From Schmidtea polychroa (taxonomy: Eukaryota): a stretch of DNA of 64,000 nt. Made by a program: the position numbers and the translations under genes. Positions 12,370 to 64,000 of the stretch are shown piece by piece. Positions within the stretch are counted from its first letter, which is position 1. Each line of letters starts with the position of its first letter. The DNA lies in assembly GCA_044892525.1 (NCBI GenBank), contig CM097885.1, positions 121,892,001 to 121,956,000 of the forward strand, read 5' to 3'. A model generated the notes under the pieces. The model was not told where the DNA came from and ran no database searches. It saw only the letters and a list, made by a program, of their open reading frames with translations.

Positions 12370-12823
12370 GATCGGAGCCAAGATGGGATCCGATGGACCA
12401 CTTGTCATAGGCCTAGAGCCTGAGAGATCTGGGGCGAGAATGGGTGGCAATTGTAAGCTATGCCCTTTACAACTGGTTGTCGATGATGTTTCAGACGACT
12501 GATGGTGTATTGGGAACACATTAATCCCGTCTTGTATGGAGTATTCGCGAACTCGCTTCGCTATCTCCGATTCCGAATATACTTTGTGGAGGGCCTCTGA
12601 TTGGGCTTTTATGGTTAGCCTCTGGCACCTACTTTCTTCCAGGAGACTGTCGCGGCAGTGCTCCAATCGCAGAATTTTGCTCTTCTCCTCCTTCATTTGT
12701 GGCGGGGAGAACCACGTTCCTTCATATAGGTTGATGCGCTTCTTTAATTCCCCGATGTAAAGATGAAGCTGCGCAGGAGAAACACGGGCGGAGGTTTTTG
12801 CCAGAATTGGTCGAAGTAGCCAT
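12370..12823 (-). pseudogene. Frameshifted, truncated copy of the LTR-borne orphan ORF
   Basis: ATG at 12823 after TTTAG. A 23-nt deletion relative to copy B shifts the frame. The downstream 78-aa core is 74/78 identical to the 26802-27563 product. Confidence 0.8.
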
Positions 12824-15224
12824 CTAAAGAGCAAGAAGTTTTATTTACACCTGTAAAAATCGGTTGAGTGTCATTTATAATTTGGAATGCGAACTTTATA
12901 ATTTTTCCAATCCATCTATTCAGTGATGACCCACAAATTCATACCGTTGGCAACCCTCACATTCATTTAAATCTCAAACATTCAAGTTAATTCATTCAAT
13001 TCTTACAATTTTATGAGAAGGAAACGGGAATTCTCAAAACCATTCATTTATCCTAACTTCAACTCGTATGTTTATTTTACGGGTTTAACTATTTCTAACT
13101 AATGTACAATTATTATTTCATTACTGTGAACTCTCTTATCTTTATTATCATGGTTATATTTCAACAATTACGTTTTTACTCATTTCACTACTACGTTATT
13201 AAATTATGCGTGCACTGTGTTATGAAAGGAAAATTCGGTATTATACTAAGGCCGATCGGATTTGTAACAGAATCAGAAGATATTTGTTTAAATTCTTTTT
13301 GTCATAATTTATAATTTAATTATCTTAAATTTTACGCCATAAAGGTTATCATAGTGACGCCTAAATCGTGTTCATTTATGTGTTAATTTTATTATCTGTT
13401 TCTACTACTGAATATCGTCAGGTCCGTTGCGATGCGTGACTATATAATTAATTATCAACTTGTACTCTTGAAAAATCTAATAACTCTGCTATTTTCAAAT
13501 GACGAAATCTAACTGTCTGCTCATACATGCAGCCTTACTATTTCACTCACTACAATTACGTAACAGGACCGTCAACATACTCACTGTGATTTAACTAGGT
13601 GTGGTACATGCATGTCATTATGTGTAGTAATTAATAGATTTGACGTTACAGGCGGATTTTCCAGATAAGTCAGAACTGCGGTTGGTATTTCAGAAAAACT
13701 CATAAATCGAATTGCAGGGGTTAATCACGAGTCTAGTAGATAAAATTAATTCTAATTTCAAATTTTCTTCGTTATATTGAGTCATGATAAAGATGGTCAA
13801 CTCATGCACTCGACGGTCTCCTCCCACACTCAATGCACCAGAGTCCTTTTCAAACTATTACTGCCTATCTACTGTGGTTAAGCTTGATCTACATGTATAA
13901 TGAACCGATGATTATTTCCTATCGCTGCCGCTAGCTTCTTTCGGGCTTATGGTAAGTAATTTGATTTATTATCGAGAATTGTTTACCTTCCTATCTTAGG
14001 GCGAGTTACTATCAGTGACAGGCTAGACACAGGTTGATTATCAAATCTATCAAGGCGATGATCTACTCGCTACCGTCCTGGCGATGCAAATCCTTGGAAA
14101 ATAATCACGACATCTAATATGAATCCTATTGGAATTCTCGTGGAAATGGCAATCTCCCTTAATGGGTGTTTGACAACGACTTCCGGAATGTAAGAAGTAA
14201 TCAGTCCTAAATCGAGACTCTCTACAGATACGATTGGACGTAGCGCTGATGATTTGTAATTCGTCCTCTTTCCTGAAATTTCTCAACATACTCATGATCG
14301 GCATCAATTTTGTAACTGCAAATTCTTGATGGAATATTTTCGAAGGCGAGAGGGTCTGACCTCACTCGGTGAAAGAACTTCTGGGATCATGTGTTATTGT
14401 TCCTCACAGGATTTCCTCACCCCTCATGACCCACCTAAGAACAGTACGCATTGCTGCCCACCGCTCTTAGACCGTCATGAAGGACGAATCGACCCAGTCC
14501 ACTCCAATCAATATATATCAAATGGAAAACAAATGTAACAAAATTCACTGAGGATATTATTAAATAAATAAATGACTATTTACCTGGCGACCATGCCATT
14601 TGGGTTCCTGTTGTGATGAGTCTCAGTTCCTCAAATCGTTTCATTGTCTATGCATTTATCAATCCAAATCTCACAAGCCTTGCTCATGGCTGATATCTCT
14701 CGAATTTCTGATCTCTTTGGTTTTCGGACAATTATTCGGATTTATATTCATATTCATTTCCATCACACCAGAAGCTCCCAGAGGACATCGTCGCCAGCAC
14801 CATGAAGAAAAAGAAAATCTGTTTTGTAATGAATAAATTTATTATTATTAAATTATTAATTGGATAACATTTCAAAATAAAATCTAAATATATATAAGTA
14901 AACTAAATGATAACCCTTACCAAATTTCTACCTCGGAAAACTTTGATCAAAGGTATCTCAGATTGTTTGTTAAAACTAATGTTCGGGTTCTACTACTTCG
15001 TTCATATCCGATCTAAATTTGGTTCGCTTTTGGTAAATGACTCCTGTCAATAATTTGTGAAGTCTCTTCGAAGTGGTTCCGGTTTGTAGATTAATAGTGG
15101 TTCCTGAATGTCTGTAGAGTTTTGGTTAAAAGTGGTTTCTGCAATCTGCAATCTGCAATCGTGGATTAAAAAGTGGTGTCTTATAACCTAAAAATTTTAC
15201 CTGCAATCGTGGATTAAAAAGTGG

Positions 15225-15271
15225 TACTCTTCTAATTTTCCACTTTGCTTATATACTATTTTTCGTCCAAT
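15225..15271 (-). promoter_or_regulatory. Pol II promoter of copy A (CCAAT box, TATATAA, inferred start near 15225)
   Basis: CCAAT at 15267-15271 and TATATAA at 15255-15249 on the minus strand, with spacing conserved in copy B. Confidence 0.65.
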
Positions 15272-16537
15272 CAGGACTCGGTTAGGTTGTAATTTTAATA
15301 TTATTTTTATGTTTTTTATTATAATATAATGAATTTTAGTGACCTTATTTTATTTTTATTATTATTCTATTATTTTCTTAATGTTTATTATTTTTCTCTT
15401 ATTTTCCTATAGATCTATCGTTGTTTTGTTGCGATACAATTTTTTGTTTTAATTAGCTTACAAATTTATTTAGGAATTGTTTTTTATTTTTATTTTATTT
15501 CTTATTTTTTATTTACCTTAAATTTTTGCTATTCTATTTCCCCTTTATTTGTTATGCGCATTAGGTAGTTGCCTTTTTGTCTTATTTTTAATCTTAAAGG
15601 TTTTATTATTTTATTAATTATTCCTATTTCTTTTATTGGTATTTTGTTTGTTTCTTCCTATATATTATTGAGGTTTTCGGTAGAATTTATTTTTATCTTA
15701 TTCTATTATTCCGTGGGATTCCTTTCTACCCTTGATGCATTTCTCGACATCCTCAAGACTTGGCCCAACACATATAATTCGTGGAGTCAAATCTTTTTTG
15801 CGTTAGATCGAACTACCCATCGAACCTAACAAAATATGCGATTCCTAATTTTATTGTTATTAATAATTATATATTATTAATATGAATTTAATTATTTTAT
15901 TTTAATTTTTAAACAAATTTATTTATTTGGATTCCCCAGGTTACTTATATTAGAAACCTCAGCACACATCCATCCAATGATGTTGCGGTAACATAGTAAA
16001 TCTATTCTTAGTAACAACGCCCCATAAACCGTCCATCATCAGAAGGACTAAACCATAATAAGCCCTCACATACTCATTAGCATAATGAGACAACCACAAT
16101 TCCCCAACTACAACCTCGTTTTCAGCCTTTGAAGTTGCTGAGGTATGTTCCCCTACCAGCCAACCCTTACGAACAAGAACCGATTACTCATATTCACTAA
16201 CGAAAGATATAGGTAGATAGACATACATTCACACAAAACGAGTGCTACTTTAAAATGAAAAACTCAACGAAAGTACAAAATTTAATTCAAGTTACACCTT
16301 AAATGAGAAACTCAAAAGAAGTACAAAATTTAATTTTAGTCAAAAGACAAATTTATATTACACCCAAAAAAAAATTCAAAGAAAGTACAAAATTTAATTC
16401 TATTAAAAAGATAACTGCATCTTACGTAATTTGCAATGCATCTAAAATCCATCTAAAAGGTTATAGTTGTTGAATAGTCTACAGTACCAACGTTGATCAC
16501 TCAACGAGTATCAAGTAGAAAAAGCAATCGTTTGTAT

Positions 16538-17690
16538 TGTTGGTTACTTAGGGGTGTGTCATTTTGTATTTTAAATACGTCAGGGGTAATTTAGATATCC
16601 GCTCGACTCTTTCCTAAGCACCTCCATGACTATTGCACCTTAAACCATTTGTGTACCCATGGCGACGACCATGTTGGTAATGTACACAAAGGCGAAAAAA
16701 CAATGAGCAGGTGAGCTCTATTACTAAAACTACTCCCCATTGTATTTTCTTTTCGGGTTCTAGACTGCCGATAGAAGGTCTTACGTCATTATTCACTATG
16801 TATGCTGTTTTTAGATCATTTGTGGTTCTCAATTAAGGGTATTTCCAACTGTTCCTTTGTAAAATTTTTGCGCAGGGATCCGTCCGTATTGTTTATCTAA
16901 TAATTATTGTTATATACTCCCTATAATATCCAAATTATCCTTCAAAAAATTTGAGCTTATTCACAAGTTAATAAACATGTTTCCACACCTCTCATGGAAA
17001 TTTGAGCAGGGATCTGCCTGTATTTCTAATCCTGAACGATCGAATATCTTAACTATTTGTGGCTGCTATAAAATTGCCTAAACCTACTTCCTCTACCGAC
17101 AACAGTTCATAACTATTCTAATATTTCTCCTAACTCAGAAATATCTATGAAAATAAAAGTCCTATACTTTTTAACTCTAAATAGGGCCCTAAACTATCGC
17201 AATTGATTTTACCCCCTCTAACCGTTCATCTCCCTATCTATATTCCCTACCCCGATGGACTCAACTGGTGAAACATCTGCCGACTAACAGCACGTAGTGC
17301 CGCCTGTCCACAAACCTTCCCCAGTCCAGACCATCGACACATAAATATCCAGAAAAACACAACCTAAATTATAATATTATTCAAAAAGGACAAAATAACA
17401 TACGCCAAACATAAGAAGTAATTAAAAACAAATTCCGTTAAAAATTTTATTAATTCCTAAAATTGTTTAATAATAGGCTTAACAACAACAAAATGAATAA
17501 TACCATACCAATATTAACAATTAAATTCAATTTAAAATAGCTTTATCTAAATAACAAAATAAATTAACTAAATAACATTAACTAAAATTAACTTTAATTT
17601 AAAATAACATTAGACCTAACAAAATTATATTACACAAAACAAAAATCAAATTTACCTCACCGCGATGGCATGGAATCGAAAATTGAGAGC
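16538..17690. mobile_element. LTR-like repeat X starting TGTTGG, probably extending to about 18200
   Basis: Colinear with the reverse complement of 34400-35520; similarity ends exactly at TGTTGG/CCAACA. Its first roughly 300 bp also resemble 26257-26560. Confidence 0.7.
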
Positions 17691-18634: not shown

Positions 18635-20176
18635 ATGACAGAAAATAATAGTCAAGCTGTAGTCACACCTAAAAGAAGTCGTAACACGTATCCAAAGCTT
18701 CCAAATGATTCAATAAATGATACAAGCAGAGATAAAAGATTTTCTGAGCGGTTATCATTGTCTAATCTTGAAAATAAAAAATCCAGAATTTCTTATGCAG
18801 ATGAGGATTATTTCATTGACAGTTCGCCAAGTACTAATATCGTTACATCTACTCCTGTTAGTCGAAATCGGCATTCTACTGGTAAGGGTATGAAACGATA
18901 TAATATTAGCAATGAGACTGGTGATTTTATGTTAGATGCTACGTCTTTAATTCAAGATCTTAATAAAGATATATCAAGAAAAATTGATATTTTGGAAAAT
19001 ATTAATCAGTTTGTAAATTTTCAAAATTCATGTATATGCGTGGACCACTTAGATCCTGATAGTTTATCGCCATTGGAAAGGTGTATTAGAGATTATCCAA
19101 AACTTTATGAAACAAATGTAATGTATACCAAATTCATTAATAAAATACTCATTTCATCAACAAAATTATCTGAAATTTATTTATGCCAACATCGTTTTAA
19201 TTCTCAGTACTACGTCGTTAAATCGGGATATAAATCTAATAGTTATTGCTTGTCAGAATCCAGTAAGGAAATAATAAATGAAGTTAAAATTCTCACATTG
19301 ATTGGTAAACATTTACATGTAGTTGACTTTTATGATGCATGGATTGAAGATGAGAGGTTTCATCTGCAGCTAGGTTTTATTAACGGTGGCTCACTCATTG
19401 ATTTTATAGTTGGGAACTCTAATAGGTTTAATGCAATTTGCGATATTTCTAAGCTGGAAAAAAGATTTAGAATGTCTAGTTGTTCGGCATATATTATGCT
19501 TGCTCATATATCATCAGTGTTAGTCTACATGCATGAAGTTTTAAATATTTTTCATGGAGATATAAAACCTTCAAATATTCTTGTTGATATGGTAAGGTAT
19601 ACGTCTAATGATATAACAATGGCTAAAATAGAGTGCCATAGTGCTTTACTAGAACCAAGTCCAAATCCAAGATTGAGATTCAAATTATGTGATTTTGGTA
19701 GATCTGGTGCAACTAGTAATGTTATAAAAATGGATGAAGGTGATGGGCGATATCTGCCTACTCTCAATGATAATAGTTCTAATTATCATCTGTTTGCTTC
19801 GTCGCGTGATATTTATGCGCTTGGTTTAACTATCTTTGATTGCGTAATTAATTACTTTTCATAATATGATTAATATATTTTCTAGTTTGGAGGAACTATT
19901 AATCAAGAATCGGCTAGCGCAATTCGTAAAGGTAATTGGGGGAAATGGCCAAGCACTATATCAGAAGATTGGCAATATATAATTAAAGTAAAATAATAAT
20001 AACAATAGTTAATAATTATATATTTGCATCAGAAAATGTCGCATAAAAACGAAGTGATGAGGTATACAGCTCGTGAAATCCTAGAATTGGACAACGTTAA
20101 ATGCTTCATTCAACCAGAAGCGCTGTCATATTTTAAGTTTGATGAAATAACATCGGATATAATGGAAATAAATTAG
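18635..20176 (+). CDS. WEE1: Divergent Wee1-family protein kinase, 3 exons, about 484 aa
   Basis: Exons 18635-19843, 19886-19987 and 20033-20176 (GT-AG, phase 0). Motifs VVK, NEV, HVVDFYDAWIED, GGSL, HGDIKPSNIL, KLCDFG, DEGDGRYL and DIYALGLT match the Wee1/Myt1 pattern. Orthology is not proven. Confidence 0.75.
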
Positions 20177-25317: not shown

Positions 25318-26025
25318 TGACAATATTTTTATAATTCAATAAAAACTGTAAATGTTATTAGTTTATTGCATTTATAATTAGCATAATTTTACATACATTC
25401 ACCCCAGCTGTCCCGAGACAGTTTATTTACTGGTGACTCGGCTGGGGTCTTCAAATTTCCTTGGTATACACACACATCTACAAACATAGATACAAATGTA
25501 AGCAAATATAAACATTACAACATAAAGAATAATAATTAGCATGAAATTTAAAATAATAACTTAGAAATAAATTGATATTATAAATAATATGTAAACATCT
25601 GTCAGAATATATTAAAAAATATAATGTGCGTATAGGCCGGAAATAAAATAATTTTTTTATTAAAATTTCTATAACATAAAGTAGTATAAATTCCTTGGTA
25701 AAATTTAGTTCATTCCCCCAAAATTCTAGCGTTTAAAAATTATTTTAAGGTAAATCCTGAGAATAGCATTACAAGACAAAAACGATTCAAAGCTGACTAG
25801 ACATACTAAGACATAGCACGCACTACACAACATAAAACAAAAAAAACATAGTCATACACGCATTTTGAAGGTAAATGGAAGAAGCAATTGAAAAAGAAAC
25901 CATCCAATTGTTAATTTTTATACTTGGCAAATTTTGTTGTTTCAATAAAAATTTATAGAGTCATATTCTCTTTATTTACCTAAGAACCAGTAAAATTGAG
26001 CTTCTCAAATATTGAGACCTCAACA
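25318..26025 (-). mobile_element. Solo LTR-like element
   Basis: TG...CA ends; flanks GTACG and ATACG (4/5 identical); right end GAGACCTCAACA; homologous to 23613-24754. Confidence 0.6.
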
Positions 26026-26801
26026 ATACGTATGCGTTAGAAGGTTATTGGCAGCCACCAAAATTAATGGATATGTTATTACGTTTGCTGGCTAATATAA
26101 TGAATAAGTCTCACTCTGCGAATTATTAATGATAATAAATAACTGCATAACATGCGTATGGATGAGAGATAAGTGATAAGAAATGGATCTCGAATAATTA
26201 TCCACTTCCAATCCACCTACGACTATCAAACTGAGAAAGATTACCAAGCATAATAATGTTGGGTGTACGTGGGGAAAATGGATAACTATTACTAATATGC
26301 ACACAACCTCTCATCATTCCGCTCAGACGCTTCCCTCGTACACGCCCCATGATCATGCAAATATTCCCACGTATGAGCCCGTAGTGATGTTCTACGTTGG
26401 TGCTGCCCACACGGGTCGGAAGAAGCTAGCAGGTGAGCCTCTATCTTAAGACTACTCCTAACTCCCTCTCAGTTCAGGTTCTATGGTGCCTTAGAAGGAC
26501 TTACCCGTTCCTACGTTTGCAATCGGCCCGACATTGGTCCAAGAGGACGGCCTTCATTCAAGGTTGCTGTTCCAGTCTAGCAATTCAGTTGTACATTTCA
26601 CTCATCATTCCCATCATTCAACTAACAAATAAAGGAAAAATAAAATTTTGTATTACATCCAAAAATTATCGAGACCGAAAAATCGTACATCAACATGCAA
26701 TAAACATTTAATTTCACAATACCAACGAATTGTTAGCTACAGAGGTGTTGGTCAAAGGTCTTTCCGAAGTGAGAGATGAATCCCATCGTCGGGGCGGAAA
26801 T

Positions 26802-27563
26802 TCAGAACGCATCTCCATCGGCGAATACTTCGTCTATATCTACGGGCAATCTGTGATCCACCAGATACTTAATGCCCTCGGCTGGAACCACTTTGAATAT
26901 CTCCTTGGCCGGAATTACGTGGGTGGCTGAAATATCCTTAATTGTGGACTGGGCCATGGATAGAGAAGCTTCTAGCGCCGCCATGGCGTTCCTGCGTTTC
27001 TGGTTTTTCTCCGAGCGTGTTAATCTGTTGCGTTTTCGACGTGGCTTGATAATATCTACTGGACCCTGTGACATAGGTTGAGGTACTAGAATCGGAGCCA
27101 AGATAGGGTCCGATGAGCCTCCTGCCATGGGTCTATAGTCCGAGAGAATTGGAGCGGGAATTGGTGGCAGATGCGGCCCATGCCCCTTACAACCAGTTGT
27201 GGTTGACTGTGCCGATTGGTGGTGGATCGGGAACACATTAGTCCCGTCTTGCACTGGATACTCGCGAACTCGTTTCGCTATTTCTGATTCCGAGTAAACT
27301 TTATGGAGTGCCTCTGATTGGGCTTTTATGGTTAGCCTCTGGCACCGACTTTCTTCTAGGAGACTGTCTCGGCAGTGCTGCAGACGCAATATCTTGCTCT
27401 TTTCCTCTTTCATTTGTGGCGGGGAGAACCACGTGCCTTCATAATGATCGATTCTTTTCTTTAGTGCCCCGATGTAGAGGTGAAGCTGCGCGATGTCAGC
27501 ATTTTTGTCCGCGCAGGAAAAGCAAGGACGAAGAATTTTCTCGGTATTGATTGGGGTAGTCAT
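26802..27563 (-). CDS. Orphan 253-aa protein (CxxC, predicted coiled coil, Pro-rich linker, basic NLS-like tract) inside LTR-like element B
   Basis: Intact ORF with its ATG directly after TTTAG. The core is conserved with copy A through mostly synonymous changes. ATTAAA lies downstream at 26712-26707. Confidence 0.75.
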   Translation of the reverse strand: MTTPINTEKILRPCFSCADKNADIAQLHLYIGALKKRIDHYEGTWFSPPQMKEEKSKILRLQHCRDSLLEESRCQRLTIKAQSEALHKVYSESEIAKRVREYPVQDGTNVFPIHHQSAQSTTTGCKGHGPHLPPIPAPILSDYRPMAGGSSDPILAPILVPQPMSQGPVDIIKPRRKRNRLTRSEKNQKRRNAMAALEASLSMAQSTIKDISATHVIPAKEIFKVVPAEGIKYLVDHRLPVDIDEVFADGDAF

Positions 27564-29871
27564 CTAAAGATTAAAGATATTACATTTGCTTTTCGCCTTT
27601 AGTTGATCGACGATCACATTTGTGCGACGCGAGTTTTACCACCCACATCCCTCATGAATTGAACTTAAAAGAAAAATTATCTCACACATACCTTCAACAT
27701 TCGTCCATAAACTCATGCATGCCACAAATCATTCACGATAATTCGCACAAATCTCTTTAACTTATTTGAAAGAAAATGAGAATAGTCACCTTAAATTTAC
27801 TCGTCTATGTCAATCTTGTCGATTTTGGTTAAATATATTATTACCGTTTCGCAATTATTATTTTAGTATTATTAATCTGGTTTATTAAATTACCTAATTA
27901 TTTTCTTTGTATTATGTCTCACCCGTTATCAAAAATTATGTGTTATGGAATTAATAGGACAAGATAATCCGATTTAGGTTCCTGACTGTATACAAAATCG
28001 ATCGATTAAACATATAGATCATAATTACTAATTTCACCCATTATTATTTTCAAGTTTTTGTTTTTAAATCTCTCTGGTAATGGTCGTCATGACGATGTAG
28101 ACTAGTGAGTGTGTGTACCAGAATATGTTTATCTGCTTACATTGCGAATGCCGTGTGAAAATGTTATGTCACTATATGAAAATTCTGCCTGCTCATTGGT
28201 TTCCACACACAACTCTACTATCACAGGTGAGGTCTGTTTTATTATGCAACTATGGCGTCATACAAAACTCTCCCGTTTGGATTTAATGTCATCTTTACTG
28301 GAACGAATTTCTCTACCGGGTGTGCATGCATATGTTCTGTGACGTTATCGATGGGAAGTTCTATTAGAGTTTTCATGAGTGCATGCCTTACGTACGTGGG
28401 TGTCTGATTCAGAGAGCTGCATGAACTGAAGCTAATCCTCTATTCTCCATTATGTTGTCAACTCAAGATAACAGCTGTCGACGCGTTTAATGAGCTAATC
28501 GTGGGGGAAATTATTACATTATCTCGGTTTTCTAAGATTGGTCGAGTCATAATCGGATAGCTTTTATCCAGCTGAAAATTTTGGTCGACAACCAACTGCT
28601 AATGCTGATAGCGCTTTCGCTCATATTGACCGTAAGTAACTGATAATGACTACTGATGTTGTTTACATTATTTTCAGGGAATCGAAGCTTATCAGTAGCC
28701 TAAAAATCAACAATCCAACTCAAAAAGTGCATCGGCACTGGGTTTTATCGCTAACGCTCTGGCGACCTAAATCTCCCTAAGAAAACCTAGCGATCGTTCA
28801 TACGCTTCTATTTGGAATTTGTGCTAAAACCGAAGATTATTATCTATGACTGTGCAACTTACTATGACGAAAAAAAAATGCTGAGGAAGTAATTATGTCC
28901 AATTTGAGCTTAATGGAATATGATTTCGACCTAAAAGAGTAGATTCGCTTCATCTCAATTGCTCCGAAAAATTCTGTTGGATTTACTATTTTCATTTCTA
29001 ACATCGTGATCTCAATTTCCCTACTGACGGAATATTTTTCTCTGACGATCGCAGACTTCACTCGGTGAAAGAAAACTCCTCAAATCTCTCTTACTTCATA
29101 CTCAGGATGTCCTCACCCCTCCTGACCCACCCAAGAGCGGCATACATTGCTGCCACCACTCTTGGACCGTTAGGAAGGACGATTCCATCTCTCCGCATCT
29201 CAATTTTATTGGTATATCGAATGAACATCAAAATAAATGATATAATGCATTTGAATGAATTAAAATTTCACTGAAATCATAAAAATTATATACCTGGCGA
29301 CCACGCCGTCTGAATCTCGAACATGATGCTATACTATAGTGTTAATGTTACGTTTCTGGTGAACTCTATCGCATTAAAATTCCCGATTCCATTTTCTCGT
29401 TTCAAATCATTCTCATATACTTTTCTGTGAATATTCATCTGAGCCTCCGCATCATATTCGATCTCCAGACAACGCCGTCGTCAGCATCATAGAGAGAGAA
29501 AACCATATTGTGTTTATAACTTTTATTAAGAATAAATTAGTTTTTATTATCCATTTTATATAAAATATCAATAACAAAATACAAACATCCTGCTTACTAT
29601 GATCGTTTCCTCCGAGAGTATTAGAAATGGTTTATGAGTCCTCTTTCGATACACTATTAGTCTAAATAAAATCCGATAGAAATTGAGTCCTGTTGAATAT
29701 TAGCTAAGTGTCTGAAAGTTTAGTTCCTGAAATATTCGTATAGCTGCTTAAGAGTAGTATCTGCAGAGTTTCAGTAGAATAGTTGCGTGGTTCTAAAGTC
29801 CTGTAGAGTATAGCGGTTAAATGGTTAATAAAATAAAGTAATTTTACCTGTAGAGTATAGCGGTTAAATGG

Positions 29872-29918
29872 TACTCTACAGATTTTCTTCGTTGCTTATA
29901 TAGTATTTTCCGTCCAAT
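29872..29918 (-). promoter_or_regulatory. Pol II promoter of copy B (CCAAT box, TATATAA, inferred start near 29872)
   Basis: CCAAT at 29914-29918 and TATATAA at 29902-29896; same layout as copy A. Confidence 0.65.
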
Positions 29919-32900
29919 CAGGACGCGACTAGTGTGTAATATTATTGTTTATTATTATTTTTATGTTTTTAGTGTAATATGTTAGATTTTTACGACTTTT
30001 CTTATTTTTCTTATTATTTTATTTATTTTCCAATTTTTGATTATTTTTCCCTCGCTTTTCTTATGACTTTATTGTTATTCGGTGATAATATAATTTTCTT
30101 TTGTTTTAATTACTTTATATAGACGTTTGCAGATGGTTTTATTCTATTTTATTCTTAGTATCTTTATTTCTTTTCCTTAAATTTATTATTCTATTTCCTT
30201 CTGCTATCATAGATGTTAGGTAATTTTCTTTTCCGTCTTACTTTTCATCTTATTAACTTTATTAATTTATTATTTATATTATTTCCTTTATTTTCCTATT
30301 TTCTTTTATTGTTATCTAATTTTAATTGTTCTTATAGTTATTGTATTTTTTCGGGGAATTTATCCTATCCTTTTTTATTTATCTTTAACCTGGTTTCTAA
30401 TACTCTCGAAGCTTAGCCCAACAATAAGCTGGGCAAACTTGAACGTTTTCTTCGACGGGCCCATCAGGAAGCCCGAATTTCAGGTTGACCAATGAATTTC
30501 TGATTTTATATGGTTAACCACCATATTAGTGTTAGGTGTACATATCATTAAATTCATTTGTAATTCATTCTCGTTTTCAATTCAAATGCATTGATTTCCA
30601 TCGGGTTAATATCGACTAACACTACAACATAAGGGATAAGTTATGGGGAAACATATCTCCTGAGGTTGCGTCATGGGAATATAGAATAATAGGACCTAAC
30701 TGTAGTCGGGCACATGCCTTCTATCGACAGCCCGCGAACCCATCCGAATTCTCGACGGTTATAGTGTCCAGAGGTACACTCCCTTCTCGCGAGTATTCAC
30801 CCATACGACACATTACCAATGTTGATCACTCAACGCGTGTTGGATGGCTAATTGGATGGTCATTGTATTGGATGGTCATTGGATCTTGGATTGAGTTTGA
30901 AATTACACGAACGTGTAAAATGTGTCTTACCTGCGACCCACTACAACGTGACTAAATATCACCGATGTGAAGAAGGTTGAAGGAACAGTCGTGCTTGATG
31001 CTCCCGAGGCCTTATATTTACTTCACACGACCATATCCCTTGTCACCTAAACTCATCATCCGAGTGATTAATAACCCCTTCGAAATTCCAACAACATTCA
31101 TTCATTTTATCATTGATTTTTATTGTTTTTCACTAATTTTTATTTATCTTTGATTTTTACTTAGTTTTTGAAGTCATTTTCTGTAAATAATTTATTTCTA
31201 ACTTCAAGTTTCCTAGTTGCCACAAATTCAAATCTGTTTAACTTTAATATTTCTTTCTATTATTTTTGTTTTTTTCGTGCTAGCCTTTTAGCTCATGTAA
31301 CTTATTTTAATTTACTTTCGTGTTTCGTGATTTTAGTGATGTTCGTTTATTTTATGTTTCTGATTTTTAATCAACTTAATGCTGTCTTCATATTATTTAC
31401 AACGCAATTCGGTCTGACTTTTTTTTTGATCTAACTTAGTTTTGGTCCCACATTTTTAACATCCACCAAGAAAAATAAGTATTTAAAGTGTAAGGAAAAC
31501 TTCATTGGGGAGAAAATGTGAAACATATTAAGTAAATTGGGACCTAAGAAAGATCGTCTCGAAGTGACCTGATTTAGACCAGAATAAGTTCATGACACGA
31601 AAAACAAATAATTAGATTAATCAAGTTCGGGATTATTTCATTATCGAGAGTAGAGCCCAGTGAGTTTTCATTAACTAACAAGGAAAAGCTTTAATGAAAA
31701 TTTATACCCGAGTGAAGTTGAAGAGCAGGATAATTAACTGACCCTTAACAGAAGAGGCAAACTTGATATCAGCCATCACCTCCCAGAAAGAGTTGCATGG
31801 GTAATCACCGAAATGACCCAGTCGTCGACAGCGCAAGTATCAGTTCCGGGAGAAAGTAAAGGTAATAATGGTAAACTCATTAGGACTTGAAGAATCCGGA
31901 AAAGCCGAAGGTAGGGTAAATGTTAACTTTGATGGAACTGTCATAAATCTGATCACTCCTGATGTTAAAGAATACATGGTTTTATAATTTTTATGGAAAC
32001 GAATATTATAACTCGTTTAATCTGAAGTTTTCATAATAAATTTAATTTGCATTGAGTGCACTTCATTTATGTATTATTAAACGTTATCGTTTTAAGTGTA
32101 TTTAAAGTTAAATCGGGCTCAAATGAAAGCAATAAAACATCGTAATCTCGGTCATTGACAATCTTGAGAGTTTACTTTTCAATATAATCAATTTCTTTCC
32201 TCGCCGATCCAAACCAAACTTTCTCCGTATTGGTTTCTTTTATATAGCTATTTACACCAAAAAACATTATTTTCACTAGATTCGATGATTAAAGAAAGGA
32301 TATAATAATAAGAAAACATCTAAATCGTTGACGCATAAATTTAAAATAAACACATCTCAATTTTCCTAATAGCTAAATATTAAGAGATTTTTGCCCACTT
32401 TGTTTATCGTATTTTATATTTATTTTGTATATGTATAAAATGTAACCAAGCTTGGAAAGCCATTAAGATTTGTAATAAACTAATTTCCCGAACAATATAT
32501 GAAAATGGAAGAATTGATAATCTTTAGTTTCTCTTTCCAAATAATCAAAATAACTTTTAATTAAAGAATTTCAACCTCGTTATAAAAGTTCAAATTAATA
32601 ATTTATTTGTTTTCGTTAACAATAAAATAACAAACAAAATGTTCTGTAATATAAACATAATAAAAATATTCACAGCCATCCATTCAATTATGTCCAAGCT
32701 TCGGATATGATGATAAAATGTGATCGGTTTTTCTTTAATTATCAATTTAACTCATGTAAGATCGAGGCGGTAGAGTCTCATCTAAATTAAATAGCAATTT
32801 GATATTGATATTTTAATATGAAATATTGTGAATCTGATTTCAAATCACATTATCAACAAGGACAATCGGAGTTGAAAATGTTAGGTCAGGAAGAAACCGA

Positions 32901-33180
32901 GGGAGAAAAACTCGTATGATTTACAACATAAAAAATTGTATTTCATATTGTCAATAAAATAATTTGGGGTTCATTAGCAAAAATTCGATACTGTAAAGCT
33001 ATTGGTGAAATTTTCATTTCACCCCCCCCCCCCTTTCCTTTCCTTTGAAAAAAACAGTCAATACTTTTATAATGTCTTCAGAACTGAATAAAATTGACCT
33101 ATGCTTACATCCATCCCAACGCAGTCATGCATGGTTAAACCAGCCAATCAGGTAATCCCATATAAAAAAATATGACTTAC

Positions 33181-33902
33181 CATCATAATGGCTATGGGCC
33201 ATAGCTAGTTTCTTATGTTGTCCTTTAGATTTCCGATTACGCATTATTAGAATAATTACCATTATAATAAATATGAGCATTAGAATGGCTGAAATAATAA
33301 TAATTGCAAACAGTGGCATTGGTATATCACCAATACGCCCAGTGCATCTATAATCATTCTCATCAGAGTTATCGTAGCAATTGTCAACGTTGTCACATAC
33401 TAGAGATTCATCAATGCATTTGTAATTACTATTCCAACAACGATATTTAACATCAGGGCAGCTATATGATTGACCAATTACATACGATGACAATGTTATA
33501 AAATAGGCATCATCTGGAGCCGATTCAGTGCCGGGATCATATGTTAACATTATTCGATCTCCAGGTGTCAGAGATTGTACGATGTTACCAACTTTGCTAG
33601 CATAGTTAGTGCAATCGGCTCCAAAAATTAATTTTGGATTTTCTGGTACAACCCATCTTAACTGAATTTCATTGAACATTTGTAATTCATATCTAGTTGT
33701 TTTATAAACTTCGAGTTTAATTGAAGGGCAAACATTGTTAATTTGCATTAAATTTAATTTATTTATTAAAATAGAAAAATAGTATCGATTGTCTATTGGT
33801 CCATAGAAACAAACTTTTTTCCCTTTTTCTTTTGATGATGAAATGCGAACGCCAAGCATGCTTAAAGGATTATCTGGAATACTAAAACAATCGGATGTTG
33901 AT
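33181..33902 (-). CDS. Internal exon of a single-pass membrane protein with an LDL-receptor class A repeat
   Basis: Acceptor TTTTTAG at 33903 and donor GTAAGT at 33180. LDLa motif CPDVKYRCWNSNYKCIDESLVCDNVDNCYDNSDE, then a hydrophobic helix (LFAIIIISAILMLIFIIMVIILIM) and a basic stop-transfer segment. Other exons were not located. Confidence 0.8.
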
Positions 33903-34399: not shown

Positions 34400-35520
34400 A
34401 GAAGTTGTCAGGCGCTCTCAATTGTCGGTGTATGCCATCACGGTAAGGTAAATTTGATTTTTGTATTTGTAATGTAAATTTTGCTAAGTGTAATTCTATA
34501 TAATGTTATGAATTAATAAAATTTTAAATTGAAGTTATTTTTCATTAATATTGGTATTTTATTTATTTTGACTCTGTTATAATTTCAGTGATATTTATAG
34601 TTGAATTGGATTTATAATGAATTTATGTGTCGATGCCCCAGATGGGGGGCGAGGTTTGTGGACGGACGGCACCACGTGCTGTTGGTCGACAGATGTTTCG
34701 CCAGTTGGGTCCATCGGGTTAGAGGATATGAACGATTGGAGATAGTAAAGTTAATTTAAGATAGTTTAGGGCCTTGTTTAGATTTAGATAGTATAAGACG
34801 GCTCAGTCACTTTTATTTTCATAGATATCACTGAGTTAGGAGTAATAATAGGATATTAAGGACCAGTTGACAGCAGATAAAGTAGGTTTAGACAATCTTA
34901 TAGAAACCACGAATGATTTAGACATCTGATAGTTCAGGATTAGCAATACAGACAGATCCCTGTTCAAACTTTTATAAGAAGTGTGGAAACATGTTTATTA
35001 ACTTGGAAATAAGGGCAGATGCCTGCTCGAATTTTTAAAAAAATTAAGTTACATTTTTCACATGAATCGCTGAAAATATGGAACGACATTTATTGAATGG
35101 GAAATAAATTATCGACAAGTATTATAGAAAACACATAATTATTTATGACGGAAAAATAAGGACGCATACCTTCACAAAATTTCGAAAGAGAACAATAGAA
35201 AACATACAGAATTGAGGACCATACCTGAATAAAATAGAAAATTGGAAAGTAGAAATAGAAAATGACTAATCACGTAAGACTTTCTATAGGCCGTCTAAAA
35301 CCCGAAAAGAAAATACAATGGGGAGTAGTTTTAGCAATAGACCTCACCTGGTCATTGCTTTTTGCCTTTGTGTACAGTACCAACATGGTCGACGCCATGG
35401 GTACACAAATGGTTTAAAGTGCAATAGTCATGGAGGTGCTTAGGAAAGAGTTGAGTGAATACCGACGATCACCCTTAACGTATTTAAAATTTAGAATGAC
35501 ACACCCCTAAGCAACCAACA
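34400..35520. mobile_element. Inverted copy of LTR-like repeat X
   Basis: The reverse complement aligns by eye with 16538-17690 and ends CCAACA at 35520. Confidence 0.75.
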
Positions 35521-35799
35521 GTATGCTATTGTCCGACACATTCAGATCACATTACTTTGCAGTTGGCCTAAATTCAGTTTTTGACCAACATTGCTACTAG
35601 TTAACAATCAGTGAAATAACTCTAGAGATAACAGTAAAAACGAATGTAATGATTTCCATTGAGAGATGACCAACAAATAGGAAAATGTAGGAGTAGTCAG
35701 GGTAGAAAAAATGTTTGATAAAGGTGCCTAAATCCAGTCATAAATTTATGATCCGCGCAAATACGACTAGAGATATAATATTATAAGAAATACATTAAT

Positions 35800-48500: not shown

Positions 48501-51500
48501 AAAATGTGGGATGTCAGTGGTGTTCGAAAGTAGAATCGTTAAATTTAGAAACTGCTAAACATTTACACATTTCTGTGGAGTGGAAATCATGCTCTGTCAA
48601 AGCTCATGGCTCGAACAAAGAAAATTTACAATCATCAATGAGAAAAAAATTGAAGGAACACAATGAATCAGCTTCACATAAAAAAGCTGGGGAAATAATA
48701 AAAATTGGTGAAACAAATATAATTTCCAAATCTTTCGATGTGGCTAATGAAAAGTATTTAAACAGCACAGTAAACATTTTTAATACTATCTATTTCATAA
48801 TTAAAAACAATTACCCATTCAGTGATTTTAAAAAATTAATTGATTTACAGAAAAAAAATAATGTAGATTTTGGATTTTCATTACATTCCAGATTTATAGT
48901 TCCACTTGTCGCAAAGCTTATATCTACAGAAATAAGAAGAATTAGTTTTGGAAAACTGATAAATACAGGTTGTAAAATTTCAATTATTATTGATGAAGCC
49001 TCAACTGTTTCACACAAAAGCGTTTTAGTAGTTTATTTGAAATCTGAAATTCAAGATTCCGATGATAGTGTAACAGTTTTTATTGATCTTGTCGAATTAG
49101 ATGGAACAACATCAGAAATAATTTTTAAAACCTTAATATCAGTTCTTGAAAAACATGGTTTTAATGAAAAATATTTACATGAAAATCTTATTGGATTTTG
49201 CTCAGACGGTGCTAGTGTAATGTTAGGAAAAAAGGCTGGAGTTTCTGCAAGAATTTTAGAACATTTTCCAGGTATTAGCATCTGTCACTGTTTAGCTCAT
49301 CGTATTCAGTTAACTCTAGATGATGTTATCAAAGAAGTAAATGAAGTAAATAACTTTAGATATTTTCTCGATAAACTTTATTCGTATTATCATACTTCAA
49401 ATAAACATCAACGAGAATTAAATAATGTTTCTAAAGAACTTGGCACTGAAGTACACAAAATAGGTAGAATATTTGGTCCTCGATGGGCAGCCTGTAGCGC
49501 TAGGACCGCCAAAGCAGTTTGGAAATCATATCAGGCCTTATATATTCACTTTAGTCAAAATAAAGAAATTGGAATAATGTCATATTTCAAAAATGAAAAC
49601 TTTTTAAAAGATTTAGGTTTAATAAACGACATATTAGAAGAAATTTCTGTACTGTCTACAGCTTTACAAGAAAGAGATATTTCATTAATTAGAGCTGATA
49701 GATTGATAAGGCGAACGATTAATCTATTCCAACATTTAAAATTAAATAAAGGAACATATGAAAAAGAAGCAGATGATATTATTAAAACGAAAAAATACAA
49801 TATTCCATTTGAAATTAATAGAAAAAAAACATCAATTGTTGTTTCGAGAGATAAATTTTTTGATTGTTTAGAAAAACATATGAAAACGCGTTTGCTATTA
49901 GACGATAAAAATGAAAACTATAATAATCTCTTAAATTGCTTTAATTTATTAAATCCAGAAACATGGCCAGGTGATATTTTTGAAGCACCATGGATTGAAG
50001 GTGAAAATAGGTTAGAGCAGTTAAATAAAATAATCAAATACATCATTCCAGTAAATGATTTTCGAGATTTTGTTGATGTGCGAGATAGAGAATCTAAAAA
50101 TATTAATACTATTTTGAGAGCAAAAAGAATTTTAAATGTAATTGCTGTTAATTCCGCAGAAGCTGAAAGAGGACTCAGCACAATGAACAATATCATTTAT
50201 GATAAGAGAAATTCGTTGTTAATTGAAACAACAAGTCATTTAATGACAATAAATTTAATGGGAAAATCGATTGAGGATTTTGATGCAACACCATATGTTA
50301 AATTATGGTTGCGAGAAGGGCATCATATGGCAAGTGACAAACGTGTCAAAGCAGCCGCACCTAATTTGCCGTCCCAAAACCAAAATTTAATTTGGAAATT
50401 ATTTAATTAATTTTATATACTATTTTTTATACTATTATATATAATATATGTATTTCTTATGTAAATATGTAAATAAATAACTATTATGAAGTAAATATAA
50501 TCTACAATAGATTTTTTTCCATGCGTACCGGTTGTTAAAAAATTCGAATATCACCACTGTATATATATATATATATATAAATTATATAAAAATTTAAATT
50601 ATAAGACAGTTAGACATAGAATATTAAAATTAAACAAAACAAAAACATTACAAAATTCAAAAGGAATAAAAAATTAAAGTAAAAAAATTCATACGTTTAG
50701 AAATTATTTATTCTAAAATATTTTAAAAAAATTAGAGAATTCAATGAGTTTCCGGCTGAAATTAGCTGAAACTAAAAATACTCTTTCAGATTCGGTGGAT
50801 GTTGGGCGTATCGTTAAAATTGCGTCATACAATTGTTGAAGAATTATAGTTCTCTTGCCGGTTTTCTTATAAATTGAAATTTCATCTCTTAGAGAACTAA
50901 ATTGTTTTTCTACTCCCTCTTTGGCAGCCTTATTTATTGCAGCATTGATTTCATCTTGCCGAGAAGCAATATCGCCATCAATGCTCACATCATCTAAGCT
51001 TTCTCCATAATTTTCATCTGCTGATGTCGCTATATTATCTACTTAGAAAACTTGAACCAAAATTTAAAATTTCTTTTGTTGGTACTTTTTGTTGAAGAAG
51101 GCAGGATAACAAAGGATAACAATATAACAATATTCTCACGTGAACACAATCTTGCTTTGATATTATCTTTAAGTTCATCAATTTTGGAAAAACTTGTTAC
51201 TTCAATGTCATCTAACTTCTTCAATAAGAAATTAATTGCACCTTTGGCAGTTATTAAATTCGCATTCTTTCTACCCAACGCAAGAACAGTCAGTAATAAT
51301 GGTTCCATAATGGCGCACAACTGTTTAAGCACTTCAAAATCGATTCCTCGAATTAAATTACAAGCATTTAATTCTTTTAATACTTCTTCGATGGGTTTAC
51401 TACATTTTAAAAATGTCTCTAACGTAGGATGAATTGAATTCCATCTATGTTTCACATTAAGTTTTAGATGTAGTTCATGACCAAGTTCGATACAAATTTT

Positions 51501-53999: not shown

Positions 54000-55425
54000 T
54001 GTTCAGGTCAGAACCACGTCGCCTTCATTCTTCAGCAGTGTCGGACGAGTGATTCTGCTCTTTCCGTGTAGTGGGCAACGTCATGCAGGAACTTCTCTAA
54101 GATGTATACTGTAATAAAAGAATCGATAAAGAAAATTAAAAACTAAGAAAACTAAAACAAACATGCACAACTTTCCAAAACACCAATCATTAACCTTAAA
54201 AGAAAATAATGGAATTTGGCACGACGTATCAAACGAAAACAATAAAAGAGTTATTGTTGGGTTTTATAATAACAAAAGATTGATCGTTGGTTACTCTGAC
54301 TCCTCGTGTTCAGACAAATCAATAAACTCCGATTTCCCAACGTATATTTGTTATTACACTTTACAATTCTCAATCACAACAAATTTCACACAATAATTTA
54401 ATAATCAAACTTTTTATCTATTCGATCAAGCCCCACCTCGGAAGTCTCGACCCTGTGCGATCTTGAAAGTAACTATCACCTTTTAATTCCTTTATTCGAC
54501 TCCTTGTCTTTGATTTGATTTGTTTGACTGTTTTGAATTTAATTCACTCAACTCTTTGATTCACTTTTGATACCCTTTAATTTCCTTGATCTGACTTCTT
54601 TGATTCCTTAATTTTCCACGTCTCTTCAATTTCACCCCTTCTAACAATCTCCAAAACCTATTGTCGATTTCTTCTTCCCTACCTAAGGCTAACGCCAAAT
54701 TTTCTGAATTTGGAGTCTCCTTATATACTCCAATAATCATTTTGATTACCAGCGGCTTTCTTTGATATTATGATAAAATAACTGTAATTAATCATTTCTA
54801 CCGTTCCTTCATGTTATTTCCGATCTTTTTTTATTTACCCTCACTTATCCTGTTGATTCCATAATAGTTCTCTAAAAGTTAAACTGTTTATTTTTCTCGA
54901 TTGCCGCGCTCGGTTGTTAAGATAATGTCTCTCCAAAAGTCGTTTTGTTTGTTTTGATAATCGTTCTCCAACGTTCAGTTTGTTTATTTTCCCTAATAAC
55001 CGTGCTCGAGGTTTCTTCATCTCTCGGGTTCTCCATTGGCTCGGACTTCCCATTAGCCCGGGTTTTCCATTAGCCAATTAATTAATTAATTAATGATTTC
55101 TGTTTTAACCTTTTTACCTATTTTCAACCCTTTCAAGACATTTTCTGACAATTTCTTGCTCGCTATCTTCTTCGCCAATCCCTGATCTACACCTATTCCG
55201 TTTTCCAGTTTCGATTTTGATAACTTTTCAATTTATTCCAATTTCTCCGATTTGCACTTTTTCTCCATTCCGTATCTGCTTACACCTTTTTCTCGTTCTG
55301 TTTTCCTTATGTCTTTCTTCAATTCTCTGCTTGATCGCGATTCTCTTTCGTTCCCCTTCAATGTTCTTTTGAATCAAATTAATTCTAATTTAATTTAAGA
55401 TAATTTTAATTTGACAACCTCAACA
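54000..55425 (-). mobile_element. 3' LTR (1426 bp) of the Gypsy element
   Basis: Imperfect 9-bp inverted termini TGTTCAGGT and ACCTCAACA; adjacent polypurine tract; TATATAA at 54727-54721. Confidence 0.85.
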
Positions 55426-55440
55426 TATCTCCCCCCTTAA
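55426..55440 (-). promoter_or_regulatory. Polypurine tract
   Basis: Minus strand TTAAGGGGGGAGATA lies immediately before TGTTGAGG. Confidence 0.85.
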
Positions 55441-57009: not shown

Positions 57010-57255
57010 TTAGTCCAAGTTATGCATTTCTCCCTCCTCCATAGTTTCGTCTTCCTGCTCCTGTAGTTTCATTCGCCATAGAACTACCTCGGCTTCATAT
57101 CTGAAAAGAAGAATTTCCATTTTTTCAAATCGTCTTTTGACCACCCAATTCTCTTGTTCCAGATCGAAAATTCTTTTCTCCATTGCCTTCATTTTTTTTT
57201 CATCTCTTTCATGGTGTTAAGACATTCTTTTAGTGATTCCTCTTCCTGCATTTCC
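57010..57255 (-). CDS. Possible small coiled-coil accessory ORF in the Gypsy 3' region (one homopolymer frameshift)
   Basis: After an acceptor (TTTAG) the frame EMQEEESLKECLNTMKEM joins MKAMEKRIFDLEQENW... across an A9 run that is one base short. Confidence 0.35.
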
Positions 57256-57441
57256 TAAAGTTAAAGATAATTAATACTTTAATTACATCTCTCCTTCCAT
57301 CGCACAAGGCCAGACCCTCCTCAGCAACACTCGATCAAACAAAATATTTTCCATTCAGATCACACATTTCTAATTTACTTTTAACCATACTGATTATCAA
57401 TAATTATATATATATATATTATAACATGCATGCAATATAAA

Positions 57442-63998: not shown

Positions 63999-64000
63999 AC

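Follow-up and report, generated by a model that had tools for sequence, protein, structure and literature searches.

A solo LTR left by a giant Gypsy element of the Burro type in Schmidtea polychroa carries a selected protein gene and a predicted mini-intron that is probably rebuilt at each reverse transcription

The insert at 26257-30423 of the window (the whole analysed stretch of 64,000 nucleotides from Schmidtea polychroa) is confirmed as a solo LTR whose parent is a Burro-type giant Gypsy element, and the 253-aa ORF that it contains is under purifying selection. This gene is probably expressed from a spliced mRNA and may regulate the unspliced RNA of the element, and a predicted mini-intron is probably rebuilt at each reverse transcription. 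A solo LTR is by itself ordinary, and the Burro type is already known. In the available parts of the literature searched, we found no counterpart for three features of this LTR: a gene downstream of its own promoter, the signature of a self-renewing intron, and an implied strong-stop product of about 3.6 kb.

The insert and its borders are as follows.

26257..30423, minus strand: 4167-bp solo LTR with TG...CA ends, from a Burro-type giant Gypsy element
30424..30427, minus strand: target-site duplication TTAT, 5' side; a single TTAT at empty sites
26253..26256, minus strand: target-site duplication TTAT, 3' side; a single TTAT at empty sites

On the minus strand, the termini are TGTTGGG at 30423 and CCCAACA ending at 26257, flanked by the 4-mer TTAT (ATAA on the plus strand) at 30427-30424 and 26256-26253. 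An earlier sequence-only reading had claimed these ends together with the duplication, and both are present. The duplication did not arise by chance, because two of the seven loci of the host repeat that were examined extend across both flanks (L143 and L144), and these empty sites carry one TTAT. In a tabulation, as that reading had proposed, of insertions with both ends visible, 17 of 19 of the solo type and all 3 with two LTRs had exact 4-bp duplications. The claimed absence of reverse transcriptase, integrase and transposase also holds: the ORF list contains none of them within 26257-30423, and Pfam is blank for the 253-aa ORF. The central proposal of the reading, namely the solo LTR of a giant retroelement with a protein gene downstream of the promoter, is borne out by the finding that related LTRs flank coding internal regions. 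In particular, the insert is 93-98% identical to LTRs adjoining such regions (L002, L006/L007), and the four LTR pairs around internal regions are 99.3-99.7% identical within each pair. The internal regions between related LTRs measure 22-40 kb, and total element lengths are 33.0 and 30.1 kb, or 48.4 and 44.3 kb where nested inserts are included.

In one of these elements (L035-L037), Pfam matches follow the order RING, gag with CCHC, Monjiviricetes fusion protein, protease, RT, RNase H, integrase, ankyrin and RING-MATH. PF03732, PF00098 and PF24664 precede the protease in this element, PR-RT-RH-IN are arranged as in Ty3/Gypsy, and ankyrin, RING and MATH/TRAF accessory domains are present. Ten ORF pieces from part of its internal region gave no Pfam match at E 0.01 to BIR, BCL2-like or dUTPase-like domains. 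The polyprotein occupies one frame, which stops break in the copies read, the Burro criterion being a single product of about 5000 aa. The primer site, 7 nt past the 5' LTR, matches genomic tRNA-Pro(TGG) genes at their 3' end over 18 nt; ARAGORN identified four tRNAs in a tandem array and none among the first six pattern loci. Before the 3' LTR no polypurine tract was found, and all eight junctions consist of GGGCCCCGGAGTGATT followed directly by TG. The paired copies that the reading had suggested looking for were therefore recovered with their internal region and primer site, and without a polypurine tract.

Burro and GYPSM1 of planarians are giant gypsy-like LTR retrotransposons of at least 30 kb with multi-kb LTRs, as described in the available part of a review (PMC6431247). 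According to the same text, Burro has a Gag with CCHC knuckles and PR-RT-RH-IN, with a fusion protein of the mononegavirus type placed between gag and pol. It also has ankyrin, RING and MATH/TRAF accessory domains and carries many accessory domains that are host-directed. The parent element shares the length, the multi-kb LTRs, the gag CCHC, the position of the fusion protein, PR-RT-RH-IN and the accessory domains; the assignment is by domain content and length, with Burro1-4 and GYPSM1 compared by description only. Unlike the present LTR, Burro LTRs are not mentioned in the available part of the review as containing an ORF, an intron or an RNA structure. Our literature search, at the level of listings and opening lines of abstracts, likewise found no account of Burro LTRs with an ORF or a duplicated first exon, although the primary Burro paper (Grohme et al. 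2018), which lay outside the search, may describe LTR ORFs.

Within the LTR, the following features were identified or predicted.

29873..30423, minus strand: predicted U3 with an A-rich block, reverse CCAAT and TATA
29848..29872, minus strand: predicted exon 1 (E1a, 25 nt), ending in CAG and followed by GTAAAA
29801..29847, minus strand: predicted mini-intron of 47 nt; its final 25 nt (E1b, 29825-29801) are a copy of exon 1 and provide the YAG acceptor
29598..29800, minus strand: predicted exon 2 of 203 nt, without ATG, with degenerate older exon-1-like units
29491..29527, minus strand: conserved AATAAA at 29527-29522 with a CT-rich tract, the likely poly(A) signal of the LTR; probable R/U5 border at about 29505
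27564..29597, minus strand: predicted 2034-nt intron, from a GTAAG donor to a TTTAG acceptor abutting the ATG
29294..29490, minus strand: complementary conserved blocks, seen by eye, a possible long-range stem
29103..29188, minus strand: conserved RNA hairpin; 8 of its 23 pairs show compensatory changes on both sides, and 99.3% of cells are paired
26802..27563, minus strand: 253-aa orphan ORF (CxxC, helical hairpin or coiled coil, Pro-rich linker, basic helix, acidic tail)
26649..26712, minus strand: possible poly(A) signals of the ORF mRNA, ATTAAA (26712-26707) and AATACA (26654)
26315..26564, minus strand: highly conserved structured RNA block with a GTAAG donor at 26504, close to the end of the LTR and to the primer site

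The ORF, reported earlier as intact, is present at 27563-26802 and sits within both LTRs of the parent elements. Among 44 intact ORFs, dN/dS is 0.35 where dS does not exceed 0.05 and 0.083 where dS is 1-3, and it is about 0.08-0.13 between subfamilies. The suggestion that every solo LTR leaves behind an expressible gene stands as anatomy only, 137 of the 150 best-scoring ORF copies having no internal stop. The protein consists of the CxxC, a helical hairpin or coiled coil (20-101), the Pro-rich linker, an Arg/Lys-rich helix at about 175-214 and the acidic tail; an arginine-rich basic motif of the RKRKRPTRSEKNQKRR type occurs in 18 of 19 representative copies. Its structure model is weak (pLDDT 61.5, pTM 0.30). 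Searches gave no Pfam match at E 0.1, no homologue among 5.8 billion proteins (near lengths only, using the protein and an 18-sequence alignment), no homologue among 1.84 billion representatives, where a match at E 2e-4 was dismissed as a repetitive protein, and no Foldseek match at E 0.001 among viral and PDB structures.

The promoter block had been described as T-rich on the minus strand; the block exists, but it is T-rich only on the plus strand, the first 480 nt of the LTR on the minus strand being 57% A and 21% T. The claimed CCAAT and TATA boxes were both located, as a reverse CCAAT (GATTGG, 29919-29914) and TATATAAG (29902-29895). The last 150 nt of the predicted U3 are 83-86% identical to 13 diverged LTRs, and the promoter pattern has 595 exact matches in the genome versus 0 for the control. 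The claimed 25-nt unit with a donor was found at 29872-29848, its status as an exon being predicted, and its predicted start lies 30 nt past the first T of the TATA box. From this arrangement we infer a transcription start near 29872.

The unit E1a is repeated exactly as E1b in 51 of 58 LTR rows, representing 16 alleles, compared with a mean of 6.7 and a maximum of 18 in shuffles; the rows are not independent because of shared descent, because two LTRs of one element are included several times, and because L075/L097 are one locus counted twice. The duplicated stretch extends from the predicted start site to the donor, and a GT donor follows only the first unit. Spacer length stays at 44-51 nt across the 16 alleles, although the linker sequence diverges. 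Among 23 close pairs, 33 differences fall in the 8 nt before E1b versus 1 before E1a; the linker before E1b shows 12 differences over its first 12 positions and, as intron, is less constrained anyway. In some copies, exon-1 alleles from other lineages lie directly after E1b (the older window copy compared with L140; L115). With regard to recombination breakpoints at E1b, no pair that was close in the R region was distant in U3. Ten of 72 promoter rows hold a single exon-1 unit and no intron, so that the mini-intron can be lost; deletion between direct repeats accounts for these copies as well as splicing does. L011 has three units with short linkers. A scan for exon-1 duplication, which missed a 2-mismatch unit in L135, found within the window only the two LTRs of the present family and none in 19 other loci, including a neighbouring 1.17-kb LTR element. 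Neither the duplication of the first exon nor the conserved RNA structures had been noticed in the sequence-only reading.

Downstream of the mini-intron, ATG is depleted in predicted exon 2 (5 observed versus 33 expected in 45 distinct copies), and YAG immediately precedes the ORF ATG in 33 of 33 copies. The exon-2 donor is weaker or missing in some subfamilies; it is not GTAAG in all, and L080 and L082 have none. The leader of about 2.3 kb claimed earlier is correct as a distance (2309 nt between 29872 and the ATG, with 54 ATGs), but most of it would belong to the two predicted introns. The AATAAA at 29527 keeps its position, 350 nt past the start, in 45 of 45 copies versus a shuffle mean of 2.0. 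This conservation makes it the likely LTR poly(A) signal, and the gene would then lie in a 3.2-kb U5. Past the ORF, the ATTAAA reported earlier does exist but is conserved in only 9 of 22 LTRs, and the AATACA position is better conserved; a variant hexamer about 140-165 nt into the stretch starting at the ORF end, with T-rich sequence after it, occurs in 21 of 22.

The covarying hairpin sits in the predicted 2034-nt intron before the ORF. In the block at 26315-26564, 7 of 48 pairs are changed on both sides, and Rfam gave no match to this block at E 1. Several further candidates in this part of the LTR were rejected. A 35-aa upstream ORF with stop/start overlap (29198-29095) contains indels, and most other copies have no donor at 29094; the GT at 29293 is not conserved as a donor. 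Contigs compared with 25900-29950 (four contig runs, 80% likeness) gave joints beside the GT donors at 29847 and 29293 and a contig joining about 29106 to 27568, from a run only guessed to be RNA. All of these show unknown letters at the joint or short sides and could derive from diverged genomic copies; for these reasons the contig joints were left unused. A genomic pattern search gave two matches to the hairpin-to-ATG join, of which the one read (L140) has no ORF after it, and no match to the exon-1-to-ATG join.

These observations can be arranged into the following mechanism. Transcription would start near 29872, and the 47-nt intron would be removed from the 5' end of the RNA and retained in the 3' repeat. 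Minus-strand cDNA of the spliced 5' end probably then pairs at the 3' end with E1b, replaces this unit by exon 1, and copies the intron and U3. Since the intron would be copied along with U3 after the transfer, it would persist and its acceptor would stay a copy of exon 1. With somewhat less assurance, we expect R to end near 29505, so that the ORF lies in a 3.2-kb U5 and enters an mRNA only once the 2-kb intron holding the poly(A) signal is removed. More tentatively, the basic coiled-coil protein may act on the structured RNA in that intron in the manner of Rev or CERV. Minus-strand strong-stop DNA would be about 3.6 kb, since the primer site lies that far from the start site. The complete scheme, in which spliced, packaged RNA keeps its intron through the exon-1 rewrite at each first strand transfer (the transfer point lying 47 nt past the start), the LTR combines a 3-kb U5 with an entire Rev-like gene and the RNA on which it acts, and hundreds of solo LTRs are regulators able to act in trans, is doubtful as a whole.

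Other readings cover parts of the same data. The alternative raised in the sequence-only reading, a non-autonomous unit moved by a Gypsy or Ginger integrase, is extremely improbable: single copies with their own target duplications do outnumber two-LTR elements in the sample, but solo LTRs originate from LTR-LTR recombination, whose expected product is flanked by such duplications, and complete elements with a primer site have this very sequence as both of their LTRs. A TRIM/LARD or Ginger-mobilised element would have terminal repeats of its own and no coding parent in which its entire sequence serves as an LTR, which does not describe this insert. Concerning the RNA ends, R may instead be very long (about 3.2 kb), with the RNA ending past the ORF at ATTAAA/AATACA, as the sequence-only reading implied, and the ORF at both RNA ends. 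The variant hexamer speaks for this, as does the conserved donor at 26504, which could suppress a downstream poly(A) signal in the 5' LTR, as a donor does in HIV. We regard a long R as unlikely, however, in view of the poor conservation of ATTAAA compared with the canonical AATAAA and CT-rich tract found in every copy, and the ORF mRNA needs a downstream signal under either model.

Whether E1a and E1b are kept alike by splicing also has to be weighed. Local template switching or gene conversion could maintain them as a duplicated regulatory motif, since close repeats recombine readily, and the exact single-unit copies and the triple unit of L011 fit such a process; yet the repeat runs precisely from the predicted start to the donor of the first copy only, with a near-constant spacer beside a diverging linker, and we judge this account rather improbable. 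The same DNA pattern, including the variable junction before E1b, would be expected if the RNA ended in the linker, the cDNA jumped unpaired and exon 1 were doubled, the extra copy being spliced out in each cycle. Such an end-to-end jump is very unlikely, as exon 1 and the linker have no poly(A) signal, the conserved AATAAA lies about 300 nt further on, and 30 of 58 junctions lack a final A. As to the function of the protein, an activator of transcription or an accessory protein that interacts with the host (Tas/Tax-like or sag-like), rather than an RNA-export factor, is a serious possibility. By eye, its basic helix followed by a heptad stretch resembles a bZIP, and its tail is acidic and hydrophobic, but the invariant bZIP spacing, N-x7-R/K, is absent, Pfam is blank, and the gene is placed behind an intron full of conserved RNA structure. 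The many host-directed accessory domains of Burro in the available text of PMC6431247 favour an accessory role.

Should the protein prove to be an export factor, Rev-like control would have arisen independently once more outside retroviruses, after CERV. The mini-intron would provide a DNA signature of an intron surviving reverse transcription of spliced RNA, which bears on how retroelements keep introns. LTR-LTR recombination, the usual host route of disarming such elements, would leave an intact gene at hundreds of sites.

Among known systems, CERV of the C. elegans element Cer1 is a novel protein from a spliced mRNA and a candidate exporter of unspliced RNA, with HIV Rev described beside it as a comparable case (available part of PMC10309623). 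The 253-aa protein may resemble both in its predicted spliced mRNA and in an Arg/Lys-rich helix beside structured intronic RNA; unlike them, its gene is wholly inside the LTR, and because the searches gave no sequence or fold homology it is not a member of the Rev, Rex or CERV families and at most works alike. In foamy virus, a splice donor in R lies upstream of the poly(A) signal, and U1 binding suppresses 5' polyadenylation; the same order within R is predicted here, but foamy virus belongs to another lineage, and the available part of PMC3694450 describes no duplicated first exon or LTR-internal intron. Penelope-like elements have a 75-bp 5' intron, 46 bp past the start, that survives retrotransposition and is required for expression, and a short 5' intron so retained is predicted here as well. 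These elements are not of the LTR/integrase type, and the available part of PMC2377424 does not describe their intron tail as a copy of exon 1. Ogre and Retrosat2 of plants have LTRs over 3 kb and extra ORFs with unknown function, but in the available parts of PMC6431247 and PMC3485330 these are located in the internal region (Ogre) or upstream of gag-pol (Retrosat2 ORF0), and neither is described within the LTR.

A protein gene inside an LTR, as in the present case and in MMTV sag, is duplicated along with the LTR. The sag gene occupies U3. It is LTR-encoded (available part of PMC12548423) and, in the searches run, unrelated to the 253-aa protein. Unlike sag, the present ORF lies downstream of the LTR's own predicted promoter and likely poly(A) signal, so that the solo LTR would unite promoter, exons and ORF.

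The 4167-bp insert at 26257-30423, read on the minus strand from 30423, starts with TGTTGGG and ends with CCCAACA, as the sequence-only reading stated, and has the 4-nt duplication TTAT (minus strand) on either side. The host site is itself another repeat, and in 2 of the 7 loci examined its two flanks are joined with a single TTAT; since these two loci show both flanks around one TTAT, the target duplication of the window copy is real. When target duplications were tabulated at other copies, exact 4-mers were found in 17 of 19 solo-type copies (the remaining two have one mismatch) and in all three two-LTR elements for which the two outer ends were available. The CCAAT box, the TATA box, the 25-nt unit with a donor, the 253-aa ORF and an ATTAAA all lie where that reading placed them, and its T-rich U3-like block has to be corrected: on the element's strand, this block is A-rich (57% A over 480 nt).

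To place the insert in the genome, we used a DNA search in which 40 of 2367 candidates were scored, with at least 108 matches to the insert, and an exact 20-nt promoter pattern, which occurs 595 times (control, 0). As had been proposed for a giant retroelement, paired copies of the insert's sequence flank an internal region with gag, protease, RT and integrase. In the four pairs followed, the LTRs are 99.7, 99.5, 99.6 and 99.3% identical and span 33.0, 30.1, 48.4 and 44.3 kb, respectively, the last two containing nested inserts. The window copy shares 98% identity with L002, a 3' LTR next to an internal region, which identifies it as the solo LTR of such an element; the alternative of a non-autonomous unit fails because the sequence serves as the LTR of complete elements. 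In one element, the order of Pfam domains is RING, retrotransposon gag with CCHC knuckles, Monjiviricetes fusion glycoprotein, protease, RT, RNase H, integrase, ankyrin repeats and RING-MATH, and 4 of its 10 ORF pieces gave no domain match. This matches the architecture described for Burro (PMC6431247), a likeness of architecture and not of sequence identity to named families, and makes a planarian host likely. The insert is thus almost certainly a Burro-type solo LTR that contains a gene under selection.

The expected primer site is present, as an 18-nt site 7 nt after the 5' LTR that is complementary to the 3' end of tRNA-Pro(TGG), and the expected polypurine tract before the 3' LTR is absent in all eight junctions. 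The motif TGATT borders the LTR on each side of the internal region (after the 5' LTR in L006, L035 and L049; before the 3' LTR in L002, L007 and L037), and together with the 7-nt offset and the missing purine tract it may point to an unusual way of priming or of processing the ends. The tRNA-Pro(TGG) genes are arranged as a tandem array; at one locus near 130.90 Mb of G000:C1 (L106) the array is long, with a period of 475 bp, and a 19-nt tRNA pattern has 1685 matches in the genome. Inside each of two complete elements (L040-L042 and L046-L048) a further insert of about 13-18 kb is nested, whose ends are inverted and whose ORFs are Polinton-like by eye. The 3' LTR of a complete element has a diverged LTR of the solo LTR's family directly beside it, in the opposite orientation (L031:2069-3259, plus strand).

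The 253-aa ORF is present in both LTRs of complete elements. Among the best 150 of 7009 candidates, which are biased to intact copies by their score, 137 have no internal stop. For non-independent pairs of 44 distinct intact ORFs, mean dN/dS is 0.35 at dS up to 0.05 (30 pairs), 0.13 at 0.2-0.5, 0.12 at 0.5-1 and 0.083 at 1-3 (311 pairs), a trend compatible with selection in replicating lineages that would be relaxed once a copy is inserted. The aligned proteins have a CxxC, a helical N-terminal part that hardly varies, an Arg/Lys-rich motif and, at the end, an acidic tail; the structure model (pLDDT 61.5, pTM 0.30) has helices at 20-42, 48-101 and 183-214 and is otherwise disordered. Pfam, protein-sequence and Foldseek searches found no family, homologue or fold match, and membership of the Rev or CERV family was rejected, as no homology was found.

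The 25-nt unit at 29872-29848, the predicted exon 1, is found again at 29825-29801 (both minus strand). Among 72 promoter rows, 57 are classed as duplicated and another 2 are duplicated but for a length difference of 1 nt; a lone unit without the intron is seen in 10, and the remaining 3 are distant or unrelated. Between the two units there is full identity in 51 of 58 rows, a one-base difference in five and a difference of one T in two, where the three-unit L011 is excluded, one locus is counted twice (L075/L097) and several rows are paired LTRs of one element. The first unit has 16 alleles; when the second units are shuffled among rows, the mean is 6.7 matches and the maximum 18. In most copies GT follows the first unit only, and the units are spaced 44-51 nt apart. 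Since each unit ends in YAG, it is usable both as an exon end and as an acceptor. In 23 close pairs, 33 differences fall in the 8 nt immediately ahead of the second unit and 1 in those ahead of the first; the initial 12 nt of the linker show 12 in the close-pair comparison. In some copies, exon-1 alleles of other lineages sit directly behind the second unit, in L115 with no spacer. The window also contains a second, older LTR of the family (about 12370-15771, minus strand), which shares three blocks with the insert at 72-82% identity. This older LTR has a damaged ORF and lacks a recognisable 3' end; an exon-1 allele of its own is duplicated exactly, with older exon-1-like units behind, and the allele behind its second unit matches L140. 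In a distant family (L135), which has the promoter motif in common, a near-duplicated first-exon-like unit (2 mismatches) lies around a GTAAAA spacer.

From these patterns, we consider it quite probable that the mini-intron is self-renewing, that is, rebuilt through reverse transcription. The 5' end of the RNA would be spliced, removing the mini-intron, and its cDNA would anneal to the second unit of the 3' repeat, which is unspliced, and replace that unit, synthesis then proceeding through the intron and U3. The second unit would thereby take its sequence from the first while the intron is retained, and intron-less copies would come from transfer onto the first unit or from deletion between the repeats. 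Local conversion that keeps the units alike with no splicing remains a rival; splicing and rewriting would be the simplest account of the duplicated units. A search for recombination breakpoints at the second unit met no pair that combined a close R region with a distant U3. Retention of a short 5' intron, as predicted here, is also known from Penelope (PMC2377424).

Downstream, the ATG of the ORF is directly preceded by TTTAG or TTCAG in all 33 copies, and a GTAAG donor at 29597 is at the same place in most subfamilies, L080 and L082 having none there. From 29800 to this donor the window copy has no ATG, and 45 distinct copies (rows in which intron, anchor and donor-like motif were all found) have 5 in total versus 33 in dinucleotide shuffles (minimum 22 in 300); the unspliced leader of the window copy has 54. 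Because of this acceptor, the conserved donor, the ATG-poor exon 2 and the ATG-laden unspliced leader, the mRNA likely consists of predicted exon 1, exon 2 and the ORF. The first exon and donor proposed earlier are retained in this predicted transcript, in which the long leader would be mostly intron. The proposed ATTAAA signal is present in the window copy, but only 9 of 22 LTRs have one behind the ORF; slightly beyond it, a variant hexamer occurs in 21 of 22. Of 67 anchored rows, 66 (including L134, which is probably unrelated) have an AATAAA followed within 70 nt by a CT-rich motif, and the spacing is 29-39 nt in 45 of 45 rows (shuffle mean 2.0, maximum 6). Judging from its conservation among copies that share descent, this AATAAA, 70 nt after a donor, would be the LTR poly(A) signal; in foamy viruses, too, a donor precedes the poly(A) signal (PMC3694450). 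R would then measure about 370 nt and U5 some 3.2 kb, and it is fairly likely that the gene lies inside U5.

The predicted long intron contains a hairpin in which both partners have changed in 8 of 23 pairs and pairing holds in 99.3% of cells, versus 42-55% in slid controls and none as good in 500 shuffles, the structure being derived from these same sequences. Close to the LTR end there is another structured block, with such two-sided changes in 7 of 48 pairs and a conserved donor inside. An LTR-borne gene is known from MMTV (PMC12548423), and a spliced regulator with a structured intron, like the predicted layout, from Cer1 CERV and Rev (PMC10309623); by this analogy a Rev-like export role of the ORF protein is conceivable, if somewhat doubtful. 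The literature search found no description of the ORF or the duplicated exon 1 in Burro LTRs; the primary Burro paper, outside its scope, could mention an LTR ORF. BURRO1 is expressed upon SMEDWI-2 loss (PMC8532177).

The window contains other coding features:

18635-19864, plus strand, intronless protein-kinase ORF, Wee1-like by eye
33125-33859, minus strand, ORF with LDLa and a transmembrane segment
48245-50410, plus strand, and 51039-52522, minus strand, two hAT-type transposase ORFs, one with a BED finger

A smaller Gypsy element of about 14.5 kb (window 54255-64000 plus L109:1-4795, minus strand) has LTRs of at least 1.17 kb that are 99.7% identical, and a Monjiviricetes-type fusion protein upstream of protease-RT-integrase, as in a compact Burro; an exon-1 duplication was not found in a scan of its LTR. 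Finally, two inverted copies of another repeat (16535-17690 and 34414-35523; 73-81% identical) lie about 18 kb apart with the solo LTR between them.
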